A DNA stretch of 64,000 nt, from contig JAIEPF010000016.1 in the NCBI GenBank assembly GCA_019749945.1, positions 13,596 through 77,595 of the forward strand, read 5' to 3'. Of the stretch, positions 2,803-64,000 are shown piece after piece. The translations under genes were made by a program, and so were the position numbers. The first letter of the stretch is position 1; each line of letters opens with the position of its first letter. The stretch is from Burkholderiales bacterium. GTDB lineage: Bacteria > Pseudomonadota > Gammaproteobacteria > Burkholderiales > SG8-41. Below the pieces are notes generated by a model. That model was not told the origin of the DNA. It saw only the letters and a list, made by a program, of their open reading frames with translations, and searched no databases.

Positions 2803-5345
2803 GTAATCTCAATAAATCGACCCGGTAACGAAGGTTTTTCTCGGGCTCTCTTCGGATAGGATCTTGTCATTCGAGATGAGTGAATCGAACAAGAGGGAGT
2901 GAAAAAAGGATTAGGAACTTTTGGTTTTGTTGGCCCTATTTATATCTAGGTGCTGCAAATTGTTTTGGCGATAGCCAAGAGTTCACCTGGTATTTTTTCC
3001 CTTGTCACGGATAATTGTTTGATGAGAGAATTTTGTAGCGGTATTGAATTCGAGATCCCAAACCGCTTGGCACACATTGCAAGAAGTTCCTTGCCGGGAA
3101 AGAGTTGAAGCCATTGGTCAGAGTTCAACGCGCCCGCCACTTGCTTTTCCGCTGCATTAAGAACTTCATTAATGGCCGATTCAGACAAGGTTGTTTGAAA
3201 TTCAGCATGTATGCGTTGTGTGGACTCAAGGAGTTTAGTGCGCAGTATCTCTTGATGCTGAGTGACAGGAGTAACGCTACCGATAGTAAAGTACGACTCC
3301 GAAGTAAGTATTCTCCCAAGTGAAAAGTCTTGCGGTCTAACGGTCAAGTTGAGTCGGAACGCGACCATATCTCTGATAACGCTAGACGAGAGCTTATACG
3401 CATTCTCAAGAAAAATAGATTTTAATTCGACGGGAGTTTTTTGGAGCTGAAAAACTTCGGCAAGTACTTTTTGAATAAGCTCGAAATCAAGTAGATAGTT
3501 TTCAAGTTCGTGGCTTGACAGTACAAATATCCGTCCTGATGGGTGGGAACGATAACTATTGACCATTTCCTCAGTTAGATAATCCCGATCGCGTATAAGA
3601 GAAAATCTCATCCAGCCAAAATTGGCCTCCAAGATTGAGAGTATTGCCGCGTTAATACGATTCAGGGCGCCACTTGCTGTTGCGGGAATAAGTTTGACGG
3701 CCGCGTCGTCTTCTGAAAAAACGCTAGAAAAAAGTTTTCTGTCTTGACTGGTATTTTCGCCCTCTAAAAAGACAAGATTTTTGGCGACGCCGATGTATCC
3801 GGAGAAGCCAAATAAGTTTCTTAGTTCAGCTAGCGCCTCATTTTCATCGGTTGCTGCGATAAGTTTTGATTTCCGAGTCGCGGCGTCACGTGCTAGGTAA
3901 AGAACTTTGTCTCGTCCCGCCTCATCAATTATTTCGGCATTGTGTGTGGCCACCCATATCTGGTTTCCTGCCTTGATGGCTTTGATGTTTTGAATAAGTA
4001 GTCTTGACAATTCCGGGTGCAAATGAAGCTCGGGCTCATCGATAACAATAATTGCATTTTCGACGTTGTGACGAATAAAAAATGAAAGGATAAAAAATAC
4101 TTCTTTCTCTCCGGACGACAGATCGTTGAAAGTGATGACTTCCCCGGAGGGGATTTGAATAAACAAGTTCGAAGGAACTGGTTCATCGGGATTTGAAAAT
4201 TTGTATTCAGGAAAGAGTCTACTCAATAACTTTTCGTACGGAACAAGTGGGTCTTCAGGTTTTTGATTGACGGCGGCACCTTTGTTAATGGCGTCGTGAT
4301 ATGCGCCTAGTGCACGCAAATAATGGTAACGTTGCTGCACTAAAAACTCATACATTTCTCGATACTGAATGTCGCTGGTATTAAATGCCATCGACCACAA
4401 ATGCTCTTTGCGGCTAACGGTTTCAAATTCAAAAATTTTGTTGCGATCGAAAGATCGTTGAGGGTAGTTTCGATCTGCACGTAAAAAGAAACCTAAGGAG
4501 CGTTTAAGAATGTCTTTTAACTCTCGGGTGGCATACGAATGTAAATGGTTGTGTAAAGATTGGTCTTTTTGATATTCACCTTCAGTGTAGTTAAAGGCGC
4601 GATAGTAAATATTGCTCCGTCCTAGATACTCAAGCATTTGAAGGTGATGTTTGTATCCCCTGTTGTATTCTTCGGTTAACGCTTGGGTTCTTGCGGACTT
4701 TTGTTCAGGTGTGAAATCAGATTGCGCTACTACCCCCAATATTTTTTCATTGAGCAGTTTTTTGGGCTCCGATAGTTCATGATTTAGTTTGTCTCGAATG
4801 ATTGAGCATTCCTCCAACGTTAGTCCAATTCCAACCTCAAACGAAAAGCTTTCAAATGTTCTACCTAAACTCCAGTTCAGGCTGTAAGAGTTTGATAGCG
4901 CGTAACTGATGAGTTCTAGAACCGAGCTCTTTCCGCTGCCATTTGGACCGGCGAAGGCAATTAGATCAGAGAATTTTCCGAATAGATGTAAGGGGCCAAT
5001 AAACTCATTTTCTAAATGGCGAAACTTTTTTATTGAAACTGAGCTGATATACATTGGTGCGGCTCCTCATTTCCTATTTAAGCGTTTCCGAGGTAGTGAT
5101 GGGTCATATGTTTGTTGCATCAAAAGCAATATTTCGAACTAAGAATGGATGCGTGAGTTTGATGGCTACTTTCGTCAATAAAAAATTAGGGACCCAGTGT
5201 TTGTGCGGCCAGTTACATTTATAACAACTTAAATCCCTTTTTCAGCAGCTTGTTTGCACTTGAAATTCTCTCTCCTTGTTGTTCAATCCACGGCTTATCA
5301 AGGTCTAATGATGCGATTGCATCTGAGCTACGGCACCGAGATTCC
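2803..5345. mobile_element. AT-rich genomic islet (probable horizontal acquisition; no recombinase gene present)
   Basis: Composition changes abruptly from GC-rich to AT-rich immediately after the AraC stop. It returns to GC-rich at the duplicated lyase 3' segment near 5350. Confidence 0.55.
2946..5054 (-). CDS. ABC/AAA-type ATPase fused to a DUF4435/TOPRIM-like nuclease domain (OLD / PARIS AriA-AriB-like defence candidate)
   Basis: 702 aa. Walker A GPNGSGKS (aa 36-43), ABC signature LSSGE (312-316), Walker B IIVIDEPE (335-342), H-loop THN (370-372). These are followed by FLEGENTSQD (429-438), IRDRDY (487-492) and HELENY (515-520), which resemble TOPRIM/DUF4435 acidic motifs. Confidence 0.8.
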   Translation of the reverse strand: MYISSVSIKKFRHLENEFIGPLHLFGKFSDLIAFAGPNGSGKSSVLELISYALSNSYSLNWSLGRTFESFSFEVGIGLTLEECSIIRDKLNHELSEPKKLLNEKILGVVAQSDFTPEQKSARTQALTEEYNRGYKHHLQMLEYLGRSNIYYRAFNYTEGEYQKDQSLHNHLHSYATRELKDILKRSLGFFLRADRNYPQRSFDRNKIFEFETVSRKEHLWSMAFNTSDIQYREMYEFLVQQRYHYLRALGAYHDAINKGAAVNQKPEDPLVPYEKLLSRLFPEYKFSNPDEPVPSNLFIQIPSGEVITFNDLSSGEKEVFFILSFFIRHNVENAIIVIDEPELHLHPELSRLLIQNIKAIKAGNQIWVATHNAEIIDEAGRDKVLYLARDAATRKSKLIAATDENEALAELRNLFGFSGYIGVAKNLVFLEGENTSQDRKLFSSVFSEDDAAVKLIPATASGALNRINAAILSILEANFGWMRFSLIRDRDYLTEEMVNSYRSHPSGRIFVLSSHELENYLLDFELIQKVLAEVFQLQKTPVELKSIFLENAYKLSSSVIRDMVAFRLNLTVRPQDFSLGRILTSESYFTIGSVTPVTQHQEILRTKLLESTQRIHAEFQTTLSESAINEVLNAAEKQVAGALNSDQWLQLFPGKELLAMCAKRFGISNSIPLQNSLIKQLSVTREKIPGELLAIAKTICST

Positions 5346-9533: not shown

Positions 9534-9812
9534 ATGGAAACAAAACCGTTTGAAATGCGCGAACGCAAGGAAAGGCGCGCGCTTCCCGTGCGGCGCGCAA
9601 CCATTGACCAATTGACCGAGCAACTTTTTGTGGTGCAGAAGATCGGCCAATGGCTCGCGCGTGAAACCCACGGTGATGCCTATGTCCAAATCCGGGAACT
9701 GAACGAACTCTTTCACCAGGCGAACATTCAGCTGCGCCGGATCAAAAATGGCGCGGGTGCAAACAAGCGCTTGCCCTCATCCGGCGCAGCGTCTCAATTC
9801 ATGCCGGGTTGA
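9534..9812 (+). CDS. Hypothetical small protein
   Basis: 92 aa from ATG 9534, preceded by AAGGAG at 8-nt spacing. No family recognised. Confidence 0.35.
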   Translation: METKPFEMRERKERRALPVRRATIDQLTEQLFVVQKIGQWLARETHGDAYVQIRELNELFHQANIQLRRIKNGAGANKRLPSSGAASQFMPG

Positions 9813-10437
9813 TATTGTTTCGGGCCCTTTTGCCGTGCCCGGTGGTGCTGAAGGATGTGCGTGCCGCCAGCCGTGCGGCGAGCCGCGCCAGCGCCGGGTG
9901 TGATCCGCGCCATGCGTAATCCGGCAGCGCGAAGTCGAGATAACCCAGCGCGTAACCGGTGCTGATGTCGGCCAGCGTCAGGCGGCCGCCAAAACACCAG
10001 TCCTTGGTCCCCAGATCTTTTTCCAGCAACGCGAGACCGCGGTCTATTTTTGACTGCTGCTTGGCAAACCATGCGGCGGAGCGCTGCTTCTCCGCCGGTT
10101 CGCGGTATTCGTGGTTGATGGCAACGGTGGCTTCGGCGATGCCGTCGGCCAGCGCTTCCCAGCGTTTGACCTCGATGCGCGATTCAAAATCTTCCGGAAT
10201 CAGTTTCGCTCCGCTGCCGAAGGCATCCAGGTATTCGACGATCACCGGCGAGTCATACAGCGCGCGGCCGTCATCGCGTACCAGCGTCGGGATCTTGGCC
10301 AGAGGGTTGAACGCGGGCACCGGGGAATCCGGTGTCGAGGCGCGGGCGACGATGTACTCGCATGGAATGTTTTTTTCTGCAACAAACACGCGCACCTTGC
10401 GCACAAACGGGCTTCCCGGCGTGCCGAACAGTTTCAT
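9799..10437 (-). CDS. Glutathione S-transferase
   Basis: GST N-terminal thioredoxin-like pattern (MKLFGTPGSPFVRKVR...IPTLVRDDGRALYDSPVIVEYL) and matching length. Confidence 0.85.
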   Translation of the reverse strand: MKLFGTPGSPFVRKVRVFVAEKNIPCEYIVARASTPDSPVPAFNPLAKIPTLVRDDGRALYDSPVIVEYLDAFGSGAKLIPEDFESRIEVKRWEALADGIAEATVAINHEYREPAEKQRSAAWFAKQQSKIDRGLALLEKDLGTKDWCFGGRLTLADISTGYALGYLDFALPDYAWRGSHPALARLAARLAARTSFSTTGHGKRARNNINPA

Positions 10438-10571
10438 GTGACCTCCTCCAGTGGAGCGGGGATTCTAACGTCCACGCAGGCCGGGGCCGGTGGAGGCTGG
10501 CCGCGTGCTGCAAGCCACGCTAAGATGTGCGGCCCCGGGCTGGGTCGGCCCGGCCCCATCAGGGAGGCGGC

Positions 10572-26625: not shown

Positions 26626-26628
26626 CAC

Positions 26629-26682
26629 GCGCAGTGTGAACAAAAAACCCCGCAGCTGCGGGGTTTTTTGTTCACACTGCGC
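26629..26682. terminator. Bidirectional intrinsic terminator (54-bp perfect palindrome)
   Basis: GCGCAGTGTGAACAAAAAACCCCGCAG|CTGCGGGGTTTTTTGTTCACACTGCGC between convergent genes. The GC core is flanked by A6 and T6. Confidence 0.7.
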
Positions 26683-26688
26683 AAACGG

Positions 26689-60127: not shown

Positions 60128-60143
60128 ATCAATAAAATCAATG
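60128..60143 (+). repeat. Partial AT-rich motif ATCAATAAAATCAATG overlapping a start codon
   Basis: The first 15 nt are identical to the 7824 and 62557 copies. The ATG of the downstream PLP enzyme lies inside it. Confidence 0.45.
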
Positions 60144-61277
60144 GACTACATAGATTCACAAAACGGCACCCACTACCCGTCCAAGGCCGCGAGATGGTGC
60201 GGTGACCAAGGCGCTTACCTCAATCTCGCGCCCGGGCCGGGCATGACGCGCGATGCGATCCAGGCGGACGACCGCTCGGTGTGGCGTTATGCGCGGGCTA
60301 TCGATGTGGACCGGCAGAGTGCGGTGTCGCTGGGCGAAGGCGGCACGCCGCTGCTCAGCCGCACCTGGCATGGCGTAGCGGTGCGTTTCAAGCTCGAATT
60401 CATGATGCCCACCGGTTCGTTCAAGGATCGCGGCATGACGGTGATGGTCAGCTACCTGAAAAGCCGCGGCATCGATCATGTGCTGGAGGATTCATCGGGC
60501 AATGCCGGTGCGTCGTTGTCGGCCTACGCTGCGGCGGCGGGCATGCGTTGCTGCATCCTCGTCCCGGAAACGGCGTCGTATCCGAAAATCGCGCAGATCG
60601 CCGCCTGCGGCGCGGATGTGGTGACGGTGCCGGGCACGCGCCAGAACGTGGCCGATGCCGCGCTGTGCATGAGCAGCGAAATTTTTTATGCCAGCCACAA
60701 CTGGCAGCCCTTTTTCATCGAGGGCACCAAGACGCTGGCCTACGAATTGTGGGAATCGCTGGGTTTTCGTGCGCCGGACAATGTGGTCACGCCGCTGGGT
60801 TACGGCAGCAACGTGCTGGGTCTCGATCGCGGTTTCGACGAACTGCTGCGCAACGGCGAGATCAAAAAACGCCCGCGCATTTTCGGCGTGCAGGCGGCGA
60901 ATTGCGCGCCCTGCCATGCCGCCTGGCGGGCCGGCAGTGAGTCGCCGGTGCCGGTCACGGTGACGCCGACCGTGGCCGAGGGCATAGCTTCATCGCAACC
61001 GACGCGACTGCGTGAAGTGCTGCGCGCCGTGCGCAGCTCGGATGGCGCCATCGCTGCAGTCAGTGAAACGGAAATTGTCGATGCGCTGTGCGGACTTGCC
61101 GGCATGGGCTTTTATGTGGAACCGACCTGTGCCGCGGCGGCCGCAGGCCTGACGCAGCTACTCGACTCCGGCGCGATCCGCCGCGATGAAGAAACCATCG
61201 TGGTGCTGACCGGCAGCGGCCTGAAAAGCTCGGAACGCATCGGTCAGTTGCTGAATCTGCGGCCGCGCACGCTGTAA
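60141..61277 (+). CDS. PLP-dependent threonine-synthase-like enzyme
   Basis: PTGSFKDRG lysine motif and EDSSGNAG. Confidence 0.8.
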   Translation: MDYIDSQNGTHYPSKAARWCGDQGAYLNLAPGPGMTRDAIQADDRSVWRYARAIDVDRQSAVSLGEGGTPLLSRTWHGVAVRFKLEFMMPTGSFKDRGMTVMVSYLKSRGIDHVLEDSSGNAGASLSAYAAAAGMRCCILVPETASYPKIAQIAACGADVVTVPGTRQNVADAALCMSSEIFYASHNWQPFFIEGTKTLAYELWESLGFRAPDNVVTPLGYGSNVLGLDRGFDELLRNGEIKKRPRIFGVQAANCAPCHAAWRAGSESPVPVTVTPTVAEGIASSQPTRLREVLRAVRSSDGAIAAVSETEIVDALCGLAGMGFYVEPTCAAAAAGLTQLLDSGAIRRDEETIVVLTGSGLKSSERIGQLLNLRPRTL

Positions 61278-61391
61278 TACCCGCGCTGCGCGGTCGCATG
61301 TTGGACCCGTTGCGGGCGTTCTTGACACTGCGAATGCCGGGCGCATAGATTCAGGCCCTTCATTTTGATCCGTTCACCAAGGGCAGCCGCC

Positions 61392-62543
61392 ATGAAAATC
61401 ACCGCCGTCAAAAGCTACGCCGTACATCCGGGCTGGCGCAAAAATCTCATTTTTGTCAAAGTCGAAACCGATGCCGGCATCCACGGCTGGGGCGAAGCCT
61501 ATTCGCAGTACGACCGCGACACCGCGGTGATGGCGCAGCTCAACGCGCTGGGCCCCTATCTCGTCGGGCGCAGCCCCTTCGACATCAAACATTTCACCCA
61601 GTTTGCCTTCGACGATTACGCGGCGCGCCGCGGTTCGGTGGAACTGTTCTGCGCGATCAGCGGCATCGAGCAGGCGCTGTGGGACATCGTCGGCAAGGCG
61701 ACCCAGCAGCCGGTGTACAACCTGCTCGGCGGCAAATACCGCGAAAAAATCCGCGTCTATGCCAACGGCTGGAGTTACGGCATGAAAGAACCCGCGGATT
61801 ACGCGCGTGCCGCGGAAAAAGTGGTGAAGCAGGGTTTCACCGCGATGAAATTCGATCCACTGCCCTCGCCGTGGCGCACCTGGATACCCAAGGAACACGA
61901 GAAACGCGCGATCAGCGTGGTGAAGGCGATCCGCGACGCGGTCGGTCCCGATGTCGATCTGTTGATTGAACAGCACCGGCGTCTCGCGCCGATGCACGCC
62001 ATTCGCCTCGACAAACAATTGGCCGAATTCGACCTGTACTGGATGGAAGAATCCTGCCAGGCGGAATTCCCCGATGAACTCGCGCAGATCCGCCGCGAGA
62101 TCGGCGTGCCGGTGGTGATCGGCGAGGCGACCTACACCAAGACCGGATTCAGGCCGCTGCTGGAAAAACGCTCGGCCGACATCCTCAATCCCGATGTCGC
62201 CTGCGTTGGCGGCATACTGGAACTGAAGGAAATCGCCGCGATGGCCGAGTCCTTCCTGGTCGCCATGTCACCGCACAATTACAACTCGACGCTGGTGGCG
62301 CTGGCGTCAACGGTGCATGCATCGGCGACCATGCCCAACTTCATCATCACTGAATACTTCCTGCCCTTCGTCGATTTCTGCGACAAGATTTCGCCGAACC
62401 AACTGAAACCGAAAAACGGCTATATCGATCTGCCGACCGCGCCCGGACTGGGCATCGATGTCGATGAGGAAGCGCTGAAAAAACATCCGGCCAAGGTCTA
62501 CCCGCAGCGCAAGCTGCGCACCCCGGCCGATGAGGGGCCGTAG
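61392..62543 (+). CDS. Mandelate racemase/muconate lactonizing enzyme family (sugar-acid dehydratase-like)
   Basis: Enolase-superfamily N-terminus (VKVETDAGIHGWGEA) and barrel motifs. Confidence 0.85.
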   Translation: MKITAVKSYAVHPGWRKNLIFVKVETDAGIHGWGEAYSQYDRDTAVMAQLNALGPYLVGRSPFDIKHFTQFAFDDYAARRGSVELFCAISGIEQALWDIVGKATQQPVYNLLGGKYREKIRVYANGWSYGMKEPADYARAAEKVVKQGFTAMKFDPLPSPWRTWIPKEHEKRAISVVKAIRDAVGPDVDLLIEQHRRLAPMHAIRLDKQLAEFDLYWMEESCQAEFPDELAQIRREIGVPVVIGEATYTKTGFRPLLEKRSADILNPDVACVGGILELKEIAAMAESFLVAMSPHNYNSTLVALASTVHASATMPNFIITEYFLPFVDFCDKISPNQLKPKNGYIDLPTAPGLGIDVDEEALKKHPAKVYPQRKLRTPADEGP

Positions 62544-62556
62544 GCGGCATTAAAAC

Positions 62557-62577
62557 ATCAATAAAATCAATAATTTA
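62557..62577 (+). repeat. AT-rich motif ATCAATAAAATCAATAATTTA
   Basis: Lies between convergent gene ends. Contains an exact IHF core match. Confidence 0.6.
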
Positions 62578-62581
62578 TATT

Positions 62582-63625
62582 TCAGGCGGCGTGAAACACG
62601 GCATGGTTGCCGTCGATTTTGATCGCGGTCTTGAAGGGCGCGCTGCGTAGGCGCAAAGCTTGCAGCGTTGCCTGTTCATGCGCCAGATCGCAGATCACCG
62701 TTTCGTTGCGCTCGTTGTGACGGACGAATTCGAATGAGGCGTTTTCGCAGACCCGGCCGTTCAGCGTGACACGGGCGAGCATGCCCACCCAGTCGCCGTG
62801 TTTTTTGCCGCCGTGTCCGGTGTGGAAGGAAAAACTGCCGAGGCCGTAGAACACCGGTTTGCCCTTGTAGATTTCCACCGGCAGCGCATAGTGCGGGCCG
62901 TGGCCGATGACGATGTCGGCGCCGGCGTCGATCACGGCGTGGGCAATTTCGGTCATGTAATCCAGCACGTCCTCCTTGAAGCCCCAGTGCTGTGAAGCCA
63001 CCAGCACATCGACCTCCTTGCGCAGCGTTGCGATTTCCGCGATGTATTCAACCAGGTATTCCGGATCGGCCCAGGTCACGATCACCGGCGGCACACCGGG
63101 GCGGTTGGCCGGCGGAATGTCCTGGCGCGTCTTGTGCAATGGCAGCTGGTAGGCGGTGTGGCCGCGCAGTGCGGCAACGCCGGGCGAATGTTCACCCGCT
63201 TCATGGTTGGTCGGCCAGTAGACGGAGGTGCGCTGCACGAAGCCGTAACGCAGGCCGTTGCGGGTGATGATCACCGGTTTGCGCGCCTCAGCGCGGTTGA
63301 GACCGGTGCCGGTGCCGGGGATGCCGAGTTTTTCCAGCTCACGCAACGAAGACTTGATGGCTTCGGCGCCGTAGTTGACGTTGTTGGCGTTGCCGATGGC
63401 ATGATAACCGGCGAGCTTGAGCGCCTGACCGGCGGCGGGTGCCGCATAAAAACCTTCGTCGGTCACCGATACTTCGGCGGAGGGCTGATACAGGCAGCAT
63501 TCCAGATTGCCGAACAACACGTCAGCGCTGTGCAGCGTGTCGGCAACACGCGCGAAGGGCAGCGCGGGATCGGCGACATTCATCAGGTTGATGTCGCCAG
63601 TGAACATCATCAGCGTACGGCTCAT
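62582..63625 (-). CDS. CapA family (PGA_cap metallophosphatase-like) protein
   Basis: The segments FTGDINLMN and ADVLFGNLEC are typical of the CapA N-terminus. Confidence 0.8.
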   Translation of the reverse strand: MSRTLMMFTGDINLMNVADPALPFARVADTLHSADVLFGNLECCLYQPSAEVSVTDEGFYAAPAAGQALKLAGYHAIGNANNVNYGAEAIKSSLRELEKLGIPGTGTGLNRAEARKPVIITRNGLRYGFVQRTSVYWPTNHEAGEHSPGVAALRGHTAYQLPLHKTRQDIPPANRPGVPPVIVTWADPEYLVEYIAEIATLRKEVDVLVASQHWGFKEDVLDYMTEIAHAVIDAGADIVIGHGPHYALPVEIYKGKPVFYGLGSFSFHTGHGGKKHGDWVGMLARVTLNGRVCENASFEFVRHNERNETVICDLAHEQATLQALRLRSAPFKTAIKIDGNHAVFHAA

Positions 63626-63854
63626 GCCAGGTTTTCTCCGGGTGTGTCGGGAGGGGGGGGATTCGCGGTGCGCGCCCGGCGCGACGGCGCTTTGTTTATC
63701 GCTCAGCCGCAGACGCGGCGCAAGTGCGCCCGGTCTTTGCCGCTGGGGGGTATTTCGTGAAACAGGTCACAGACGAGACGCCGCAGCCCTTTCCGGTTTA
63801 GTTATTCTCATTCGTTCGACAATAAAATTTATATTGCGAAGCAACAAAAATCGC

Positions 63855-63882
63855 TTGACCGCGAACTTGGCCGTGGCAGAAT
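63855..63882 (+). promoter_or_regulatory. Candidate sigma-70 promoter (-35 TTGACC, 16-bp spacer, -10 CAGAAT)
   Basis: Preceded by an AT-rich UP-like tract. About 95 nt upstream of a strong terminator, with no ORF in between. Confidence 0.4.
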
Positions 63883-63888
63883 GGGAAC

Positions 63889-63984
63889 CGTGTTGGGTGT
63901 CTTTACAGACATCGGCACACATCCTCCAAAACCTCCTCCTTTGGTGGAACTTCAGCGCAACCCTCCGGGGTTGCGCTTTTTTTT
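63889..63984 (+). ncRNA. Candidate small RNA (~95 nt) with CU-rich anti-Shine-Dalgarno loop
   Basis: Three predicted hairpins. The second presents ACCUCCUCC in its loop (stem CCAAA/UUUGG, 63926-63944) next to CAUCCUCC. It ends in an intrinsic terminator. Confidence 0.45.
63955..63984 (+). terminator. Rho-independent terminator
   Basis: 9-bp stem GCGCAACCC/GGGTTGCGC with loop TCCG, followed by T8. Confidence 0.8.
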
Positions 63985-64000
63985 GTGCTGTCGATGCGGC

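Follow-up and report, generated by a model that had tools for sequence, protein, structure and literature searches.

Comparative sequence analysis identifies positions 63855-63984 of the stretch of DNA analyzed (64,000 nucleotides of a Burkholderiales bacterium contig; hereafter the window) as a genuine, well-conserved small-RNA gene, the conservation being such that chance is excluded. We consider it probable that this is an independent gene whose RNA, about 95 nt long and bearing anti-Shine-Dalgarno (anti-SD) sequences, acts in trans on translation initiation; this proposal draws on analogy with characterized small RNAs (sRNAs). The RNA is evidently related to the betaproteobacterial double-hairpin/toxic sRNAs, and by analogy would work like them. 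Judged by its sequence, it comes from a lineage that has the seed hairpin, layout and taxonomic range in common with RF02278, and it lies outside the curated boundary of that family.

Promoter architecture and RNA fold

The original prediction opened the unit with a promoter consisting of TTGACC, a 16-nt spacer and CAGAAT. A promoter scan located exactly this: the -35 hexamer TTGACC occupies 63855-63860 and the -10 hexamer CAGAAT 63877-63882, both on the plus strand and 16 nt apart, with TG two bases upstream of the -10 box. It is the sole sigma-70-type site between 63400 and 64000, where shuffled sequences lead one to expect 0.2. Orthologs keep TTGAC or TTGCA at the position of the -35 box, and have CATAAT, CAGAAT, CAAAAT or CATACT in the same place as the -10 box. 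Given the spacing to the -10 box, we infer that transcription starts at about 63889-63890, so that the first base of an RNA of about 95 nt would open hairpin 1.

The AT-rich, UP-like tract reported upstream of the promoter turned out to be something else, namely a conserved palindromic motif. This imperfect palindrome, TTTATATTGC-GAA-GCAACAAAAA (63828-63850, plus strand), adjoins the -35 box and is presumed to be a transcription-factor site. The motif, written TaTatTGC-N3-GCAgCA-N-AAA, recurs in 72 of the 73 orthologous loci, compared with 1.5 matches in shuffled upstream sequence, and in 69 of those 72 it sits 54-56 nt before hairpin 1. It matches its own pattern on both strands, and its conservation pattern has no 3-nt periodicity. 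Promoter hexamers and palindrome are kept together in 72 of the 73 copies. A regulon search of the window revealed no second convincing copy of the palindrome besides the site itself. The sRNA promoter is probably controlled via this adjacent palindrome, which provides a handle for finding the factor concerned.

No credible plus-strand ORF in the window ORF list covers 63855-63984, in agreement with the original prediction, which had also noted that no upstream plus-strand gene would need the terminator. That too is right: the plus-strand ORF at 63134-63760 is antisense to a real gene (62582-63625, minus strand) that encodes a PGA_cap-family protein and is divergently transcribed.

Folding of the RNA from 63886 to 63984 gives three hairpins at a minimum free energy of -41 kcal/mol; its z-score against dinucleotide shuffles is -5.28, and none of 200 shuffles was as stable. 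Hairpin 1, the 5'-terminal stem-loop of the single-sequence fold, occupies 63890-63920 on the plus strand, as do all the elements that follow it. Hairpin 2, UCCUCCAAAACCUCCUCCUUUGGUGGA, is the 27-nt seed hairpin (63922-63948). Its 5' arm contains the first anti-SD motif, UCCUCC (63922-63927), and its loop the second, ACCUCCUCC (63931-63939), which is unpaired with a probability of 0.99. A linker, ACUUC (63949-63953), which is single-stranded in the fold and recognizable in the alignment, leads from hairpin 2 to a Rho-independent terminator with its U run (63954-63984). The terminator scan puts the stem at 63954-63977, with 10 pairs (seven of them G-C) and a loop of 4 nt; the T run extends to 63984. 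Three hairpins, a middle loop that exposes an anti-SD stretch and a terminal GC hairpin followed by a T run had all been foreseen correctly. The loop motif, however, had been given as CCUCCUCCC and actually reads CCUCCUCC(U). The CCUCCUCC sequence includes CCUCCUU, which is the core of the anti-Shine-Dalgarno sequence of 16S rRNA.

Conservation and covariation in related genomes

A collection of species-representative genomes was scanned with a pattern taken from hairpin 2 (TCCTCCA-N2-5-CCTCCTCC-N1-4-TGGNGGA). At least 120 loci matched, and the taxonomic range and copy numbers obtained in this way are lower bounds. About 110 of the matches listed are betaproteobacterial sRNA-like units comprising a -10 box, a variable 5' hairpin, the core hairpin and a terminator. 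Three subtypes can be recognized among the matches listed: AAAA (at least 65 loci), AAT (at least 37 copies) and ACC (at least 8 loci). The AAAA subtype is that of the window and, among the matches listed, belongs entirely to uncultured Burkholderiales/Betaproteobacteria; the AAT subtype is that of Thiobacillus. Nearly all the related loci are titled Burkholderiales, Betaproteobacteria or Thiobacillus. A motif similar to the upstream palindrome precedes some ACC-type copies.

The complete promoter-to-terminator unit is present once per locus in at least 72 further loci from uncultured Burkholderiales/Betaproteobacteria. A covariance model built from 66 AAAA-type sequences found exactly one copy in each of 73 sources (the window, 65 pattern-selected loci and 7 loci fetched via SucC), at 77-118 bits; the window copy scored 110.6. 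Neither this model nor an Rfam E-value scan detected a paralog in the 64-kb window. The count of one copy thus applies to the 64-kb window and to each locus of about 8 kb.

In the 73-sequence alignment 96.3% of cells are standard pairs, and sliding the partners by 1-3 columns brings pairing down to 35-46%. Compensatory double changes occur in 15 pairs, a figure reached by none of 500 shuffles. Eight of the 12 pairs of hairpin 1 have such double changes, and seven of the nine terminator pairs counted have compensatory changes, with 7-9 U residues kept after them. When folded singly, all 73 sequences form the three hairpins, with the CCUCCUCC loop 0.99 unpaired and the terminator present in every minimum-free-energy fold. 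The original prediction had been staked on the hairpins being conserved in related genomes: all 73 fold alike, and hairpin 1 and the terminator covary. As promoter and terminator are also kept across the 73 loci, its central claim, a stand-alone sRNA gene, is borne out.

Is the seed hairpin as rigidly conserved as the alignment implies? Hairpin 2 shows no variation and no compensatory change in any of the 73 sequences, but 65 of the 72 other loci had been chosen by a pattern that fixes most of this hairpin, so that only seven loci speak to its invariance without bias. These seven come from a second sample, which was drawn from metagenome contigs via the SucC protein alone because the first was pattern-selected. 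In this SucC-only sample 7 of 80 sucC loci carry the sRNA. All seven have a 27-nt hairpin that is 100% identical to that of the window, in a setting where the 5' hairpin, the terminator, the spacers and the flanking intergenic DNA diverge. The 73 other loci of this sample, several of them with a SucC 80-84% identical to the query, are without the sRNA, which makes the sRNA-sucC arrangement specific to one clade.

Relationship to known sRNA families

No Rfam family reaches its gathering score in 63855-63984. The Rfam scan proposed in the original prediction did give hits, all below threshold. RF02278 (Betaproteobacteria_toxic_sRNA; 32.0 bits vs a gathering score of 50) and RF02871 (ncS54; 31.9 vs 43) are level as the two best matches, and RF02344 (ar14) gave 15.6 bits vs 58.8. 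The match to Burkholderia ncS54 spans hairpin 2 and the terminator; its alignment is mostly generic terminator, and the first stem of the model is aligned with non-standard pairs. With RF02278 the AAAA subtype scores about 30-32 bits (29.9 in L177, a close relative of the window). The sister subtypes, by comparison, pass the threshold of 50, with 60-66 bits for ACC (core UCCUCCACC...) and 56 bits for AAT (core UCCUCCAAUCC..., Thiobacillus). Because the window copy scores 32 bits against 56-66 for these sisters, we read it as a divergent variant of the RF02278 kind, not as a certified member. The resemblance to the toxic sRNA class of Betaproteobacteria that was suggested at the outset is thus upheld as kinship, RF02278 being among the two closest families, and not as membership. 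The same shortfall (32 vs 50 bits) explains why genome annotation omits AAAA-type genes: the Rfam threshold misses them. The 73-sequence alignment could seed an extended Rfam model, and it extends the anti-SD double-hairpin sRNAs into many uncultured Burkholderiales of soil, groundwater and freshwater.

The known members of RF02278 are ncS03, ncS05, NcS27 and ncS62 of Burkholderia and Hsnc059/063/086/107 of Herbaspirillum. Like the window RNA they are betaproteobacterial, and they have in common with it the UCCUCCA...UGGUGGA arms, a CUCCUC-type loop, a short linker and a Rho-independent terminator. The double-hairpin 3' domain, a CU-rich hairpin and then the terminator, is present in the window RNA, and so is an unpaired CU-rich stretch complementary to ribosome-binding sites, in the form of the ACCUCCUCC loop. 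In NcS27 and the Herbaspirillum members the RF02278 domain is preceded by a 5' extension (PMC5688073, PMC7011215), just as a 5' hairpin precedes the RF02278-like domain of the window RNA. It differs from them in its stem, where AAAA/UUU replaces CC/GG and a U-U mismatch is added, and in having its own conserved promoter palindrome. It also differs in location, being fixed upstream of sucCD whereas the Burkholderia RF02278 copies lie elsewhere, NcS27 for instance between BCAL3348a and BCAL3349 (PMC4603805). RF02278 sRNAs come in three to five dispersed copies per genome (PMC5688073); of the window RNA, one copy was seen per locus or window. On sequence grounds we regard the window RNA as a distinct subtype, characterized by the 5' hairpin, the invariant 27-nt seed hairpin, a promoter palindrome of its own and a fixed place upstream of sucCD.

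The sister subtypes have features of their own. Thiobacillus-type copies (56 bits with RF02278) were located at 3419-3482 and 3699-3762 in L166 and at 3996-4063 in L238; the two in L166 form a tandem pair 280 nt apart, the only such pair among the loci of all subtypes listed. Their promoter is different, with TTGACA, a 17-nt spacer and a TAATAT-type -10 box, and a palindrome, ATTAGA-N-TCTAAT, spans the -10 box and the start site. In L143 an ACC-type sRNA is followed, about 60 nt further on, by a match to a group II intron domain (RF02001; 1845-1973, 38.2 bits with a threshold of 32).

The window RNA also resembles NmsRA and NmsRB of Neisseria (= RcoF, NgncR_162/163), which are betaproteobacterial, have three stem-loops and carry UC-rich anti-SD sequence in two regions, the loop of stem-loop 2 being the site of one. 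NmsRA represses prpB, prpC, gltA, sucC, sdhC and fumC directly through its two anti-SD regions (PMC5362039). The NmsRs are a tandem pair, whereas the window RNA is single in all 73 loci, and the Rfam matches with E values up to 10 included no sRNA family from Neisseria. A further parallel is with the 'cuckoo' RNAs (alpha-r14, CcsR1-4, NfeR1; ar14, RF02344), which are trans-acting and have CCUCCUCCC-type anti-SD hairpin loops (PMC4615179). These are alphaproteobacterial and have repeated motif hairpins, neither of which is true of the window RNA, and the likeness is that of a functional analogue, probably arrived at by convergence.

Viral and plasmid sequences were also searched. BLAST of the window end and the sRNA against PLSDB gave no plasmid-borne copy, the only matches being a short piece of a Bosea gene and a chance one in Aeromonas. 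There was no sign of a phage-borne copy either: the specific pattern had three matches on viral contigs, all in CT-rich low-complexity sequence without an sRNA-like promoter or terminator, and those of a broad pattern were, in our assessment, mostly chance among the matches listed.

Linkage to sucCD

The original prediction recommended inspecting the sequence past position 64000, and this was done by way of relatives. Five loci (L133, L168, L173, L177 and L205) align with the window to its last base; in these, sucC starts about 460-490 nt past the terminator and sucD is next. Going by synteny, sucC is the gene that the window stops short of, about 470 nt past the terminator. More generally, practically all AAAA-type loci of which enough downstream sequence was seen have sucC downstream in the same orientation, even where the upstream gene is not PGA_cap, and in the seven SucC-sampled loci the unit lies 205-483 nt upstream of sucC.

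Could the unit then be part of sucCD itself? The original prediction had allowed for a 5' leader or attenuator of a gene beyond the window edge, and the conserved downstream gene that this calls for does exist. A cis-acting role as 5' leader or attenuator of sucCD, or as a promoter conditionally read through into it, with the terminator as a regulated attenuator, would be in keeping with the same-strand position of sucC, with the distances in the seven unbiased loci and with the alignment of the window end to relatives that have sucC about 470 nt past the terminator. Other features of these loci nevertheless make it an improbable reading. A strong terminator with 7-9 U residues is conserved, and the spacer, measured from the end of hairpin 2 to the sucC ATG, is anything from 241 to 639 nt long and shows little conservation apart from what appears to be a control region belonging to sucC. 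In 61 of 64 sRNA-bearing loci this region has a perfect FNR/CRP-like palindrome, TTGAC-N4-GTCAA (mostly TTGACTGCGGTCAA), 82-110 nt before the sucC ATG, and beside it is a conserved promoter-like GCTGTAATAGAT block. The palindrome is also present in six sRNA-less loci, including five of the closest that were fully seen. Its presence suggests regulation of sucCD by a member of the FNR/CRP family in this clade; the leader reading is disfavored because sucC has a conserved promoter region of its own. A further point against it is that the sister subtypes lie away from sucC, as in Thiobacillus thioparus (DSM 505), where by our own reading of the translations the sRNA is between dnaE-like and metG-like genes.

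Inspection of the DNA around these genes turned up several minor features. In L177 the sucC palindrome TTGACTGCGGTCAA is at 2150-2163 and is accompanied by a GCTGTAATAGATTTGGCGTCCC block, which is conserved. The DNA of this locus that separates the sRNA terminator from the sucC promoter region (about 2003-2145) has a conserved extended -10-like sequence, TTTGATATACT, about 230 nt upstream of sucC, and about 130 nt past it a hairpin and then TTTATT; the stretch could represent a second small transcript, and its conservation is mainly a feature of the closest relatives. The 5' UTR of sucC contains a hairpin (GGCGTCCC...GGGACGC; 2187-2227 in L177), which in the five closest relatives is accompanied by a T run and looks attenuator-like; more distant relatives keep the hairpin, with compensatory changes, without the T run. 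On the other side of the sRNA, a trio of genes at 60141-63625 encoding a PLP-dependent enzyme (PALP), an enolase-superfamily MR_MLE protein and the PGA_cap protein keeps its synteny with the sRNA in roughly half of the related loci.

Predicted mode of action and targets

We thus favor an independent, trans-acting anti-SD sRNA, for which the following mode of action can be proposed. The sigma-70 promoter would start transcription and the strong intrinsic terminator would end it, giving an RNA in three parts: a protective 5' hairpin, the invariant seed hairpin, and the terminator hairpin with its U tail. The CCUCCUCC loop and the UCCUCC arm would pair with the SD and start-codon regions of several mRNAs, and this pairing would block translation initiation in trans, as for NcS27, the RF02278 sRNAs and NmsR. 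Hfq would presumably be involved. No new mechanism is implied; the regulatory strategy is a known one, of which this would be a well-supported case.

Published work on the relatives provides the basis for the analogy. In B. cenocepacia ncS03, ncS05, NcS27 and ncS62 are expressed and end at their own terminators; the CU-rich stretches of the RF02278 sRNAs are complementary to ribosome-binding sites, and translation start regions account for 55-80% of the interactions predicted for these sRNAs; overexpression of NcS27 slows growth and silencing speeds it up (PMC5688073). Where it touches on NcS27, the review PMC10987360 has it affecting carbon source use.

Which mRNAs might be regulated? The targets are probably in central carbon/TCA-cycle metabolism, because the sRNA has a fixed position upstream of sucCD; this strict placement suggests control of these pathways in parallel to NmsR. 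The parallel has its limits in that sucC is a validated target of NmsR (PMC5362039), whereas for the window RNA it is a conserved neighbor, by synteny only, and visual inspection of the sucC alignment showed no obvious extended complementarity to the seed at the start region. A simple RNAduplex scan run against every ORF start of the window was uninformative, with long bulged duplexes in spurious GC-rich ORFs dominating its output. The ACCUCCUCC loop has a perfect 9-nt complement in GGAGGAGGU (10441-10449, minus strand), the ribosome-binding site of a glutathione S-transferase-like gene with the Pfam domains GST_N and GST_C (9799-10437, minus strand), which sits 3 nt ahead of the ATG of that gene; apart from the sRNA itself, the 8-mer occurs nowhere else in the window. 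This mRNA is a possible target, although the match is anecdotal.

A purely trans-acting model does not account for the strict linkage to sucC. More speculatively, the sRNA and sucCD could form a dedicated, conserved regulatory module of an uncultured Burkholderiales clade, in which a factor bound to the palindrome switches on an sRNA that reprograms translation of TCA/central-carbon genes; we regard this as unlikely, if less so than the leader reading above. Conditional read-through of the sRNA terminator might also feed sucCD, which would make the unit a dual trans/cis element. The proposed module can be likened to Neisseria NmsR or to E. coli SdhX, which is encoded at the 3' end of sucD.

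A different possibility is that the RNA serves mainly to sequester something, either an RNA-binding protein or, as a mimic of the 16S 3' end, the SD sequences for which it would compete. Binding of a factor or of the ribosome would explain the invariance of the whole hairpin, in which all 27 nt including the stem are unchanged with no compensatory change, and the CCUCCUU of the loop matches the 16S anti-SD core. We know of no protein partner for such sRNAs, and most of the invariance in the large sample stems from how the loci were selected. That RF02278 relatives are toxic when cloned in E. coli, a point which PMC5688073 takes from Kimelman 2012, would also be in keeping with sequestration, but the effects of the relatives map to CU-rich seeds that pair with specific ribosome-binding sites (PMC5688073, PMC5362039). 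On balance we give sequestration little credence, marginally less than we give the leader.

It is extremely unlikely that the conserved sequence serves the opposite strand by encoding a small protein: a 51-codon ORF does run from 63922 down to 63767 behind a very strong SD-like sequence (AGGAGGAGG-N9-ATG, 9 nt upstream of the ATG), but we rejected it since its length is not conserved among the 73 orthologs (3 to 418 codons, five or fewer in about 40%, and no start codon in three), insertions and deletions in hairpin 1 break the frame, and the upstream motif is conserved in a pattern that lacks 3-nt periodicity.

Additional observations in the window

Two further features are recorded here. Opposite a G-rich run on the plus strand, GGGAGGGGGGGG (63646-63662), the 5' UTR of the divergent PGA_cap gene reads CCCCCCCCUCCC; the SD sequence of this gene, GGAGAA, follows about 8 nt further on, and CCCCCCCCUCCC could pair with it. 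At 26628-26683 Rfam gave sub-threshold matches to plant microRNA precursors (32-34 bits with a threshold of 100); because these occur on both strands, they point to a long near-perfect inverted repeat at this position.
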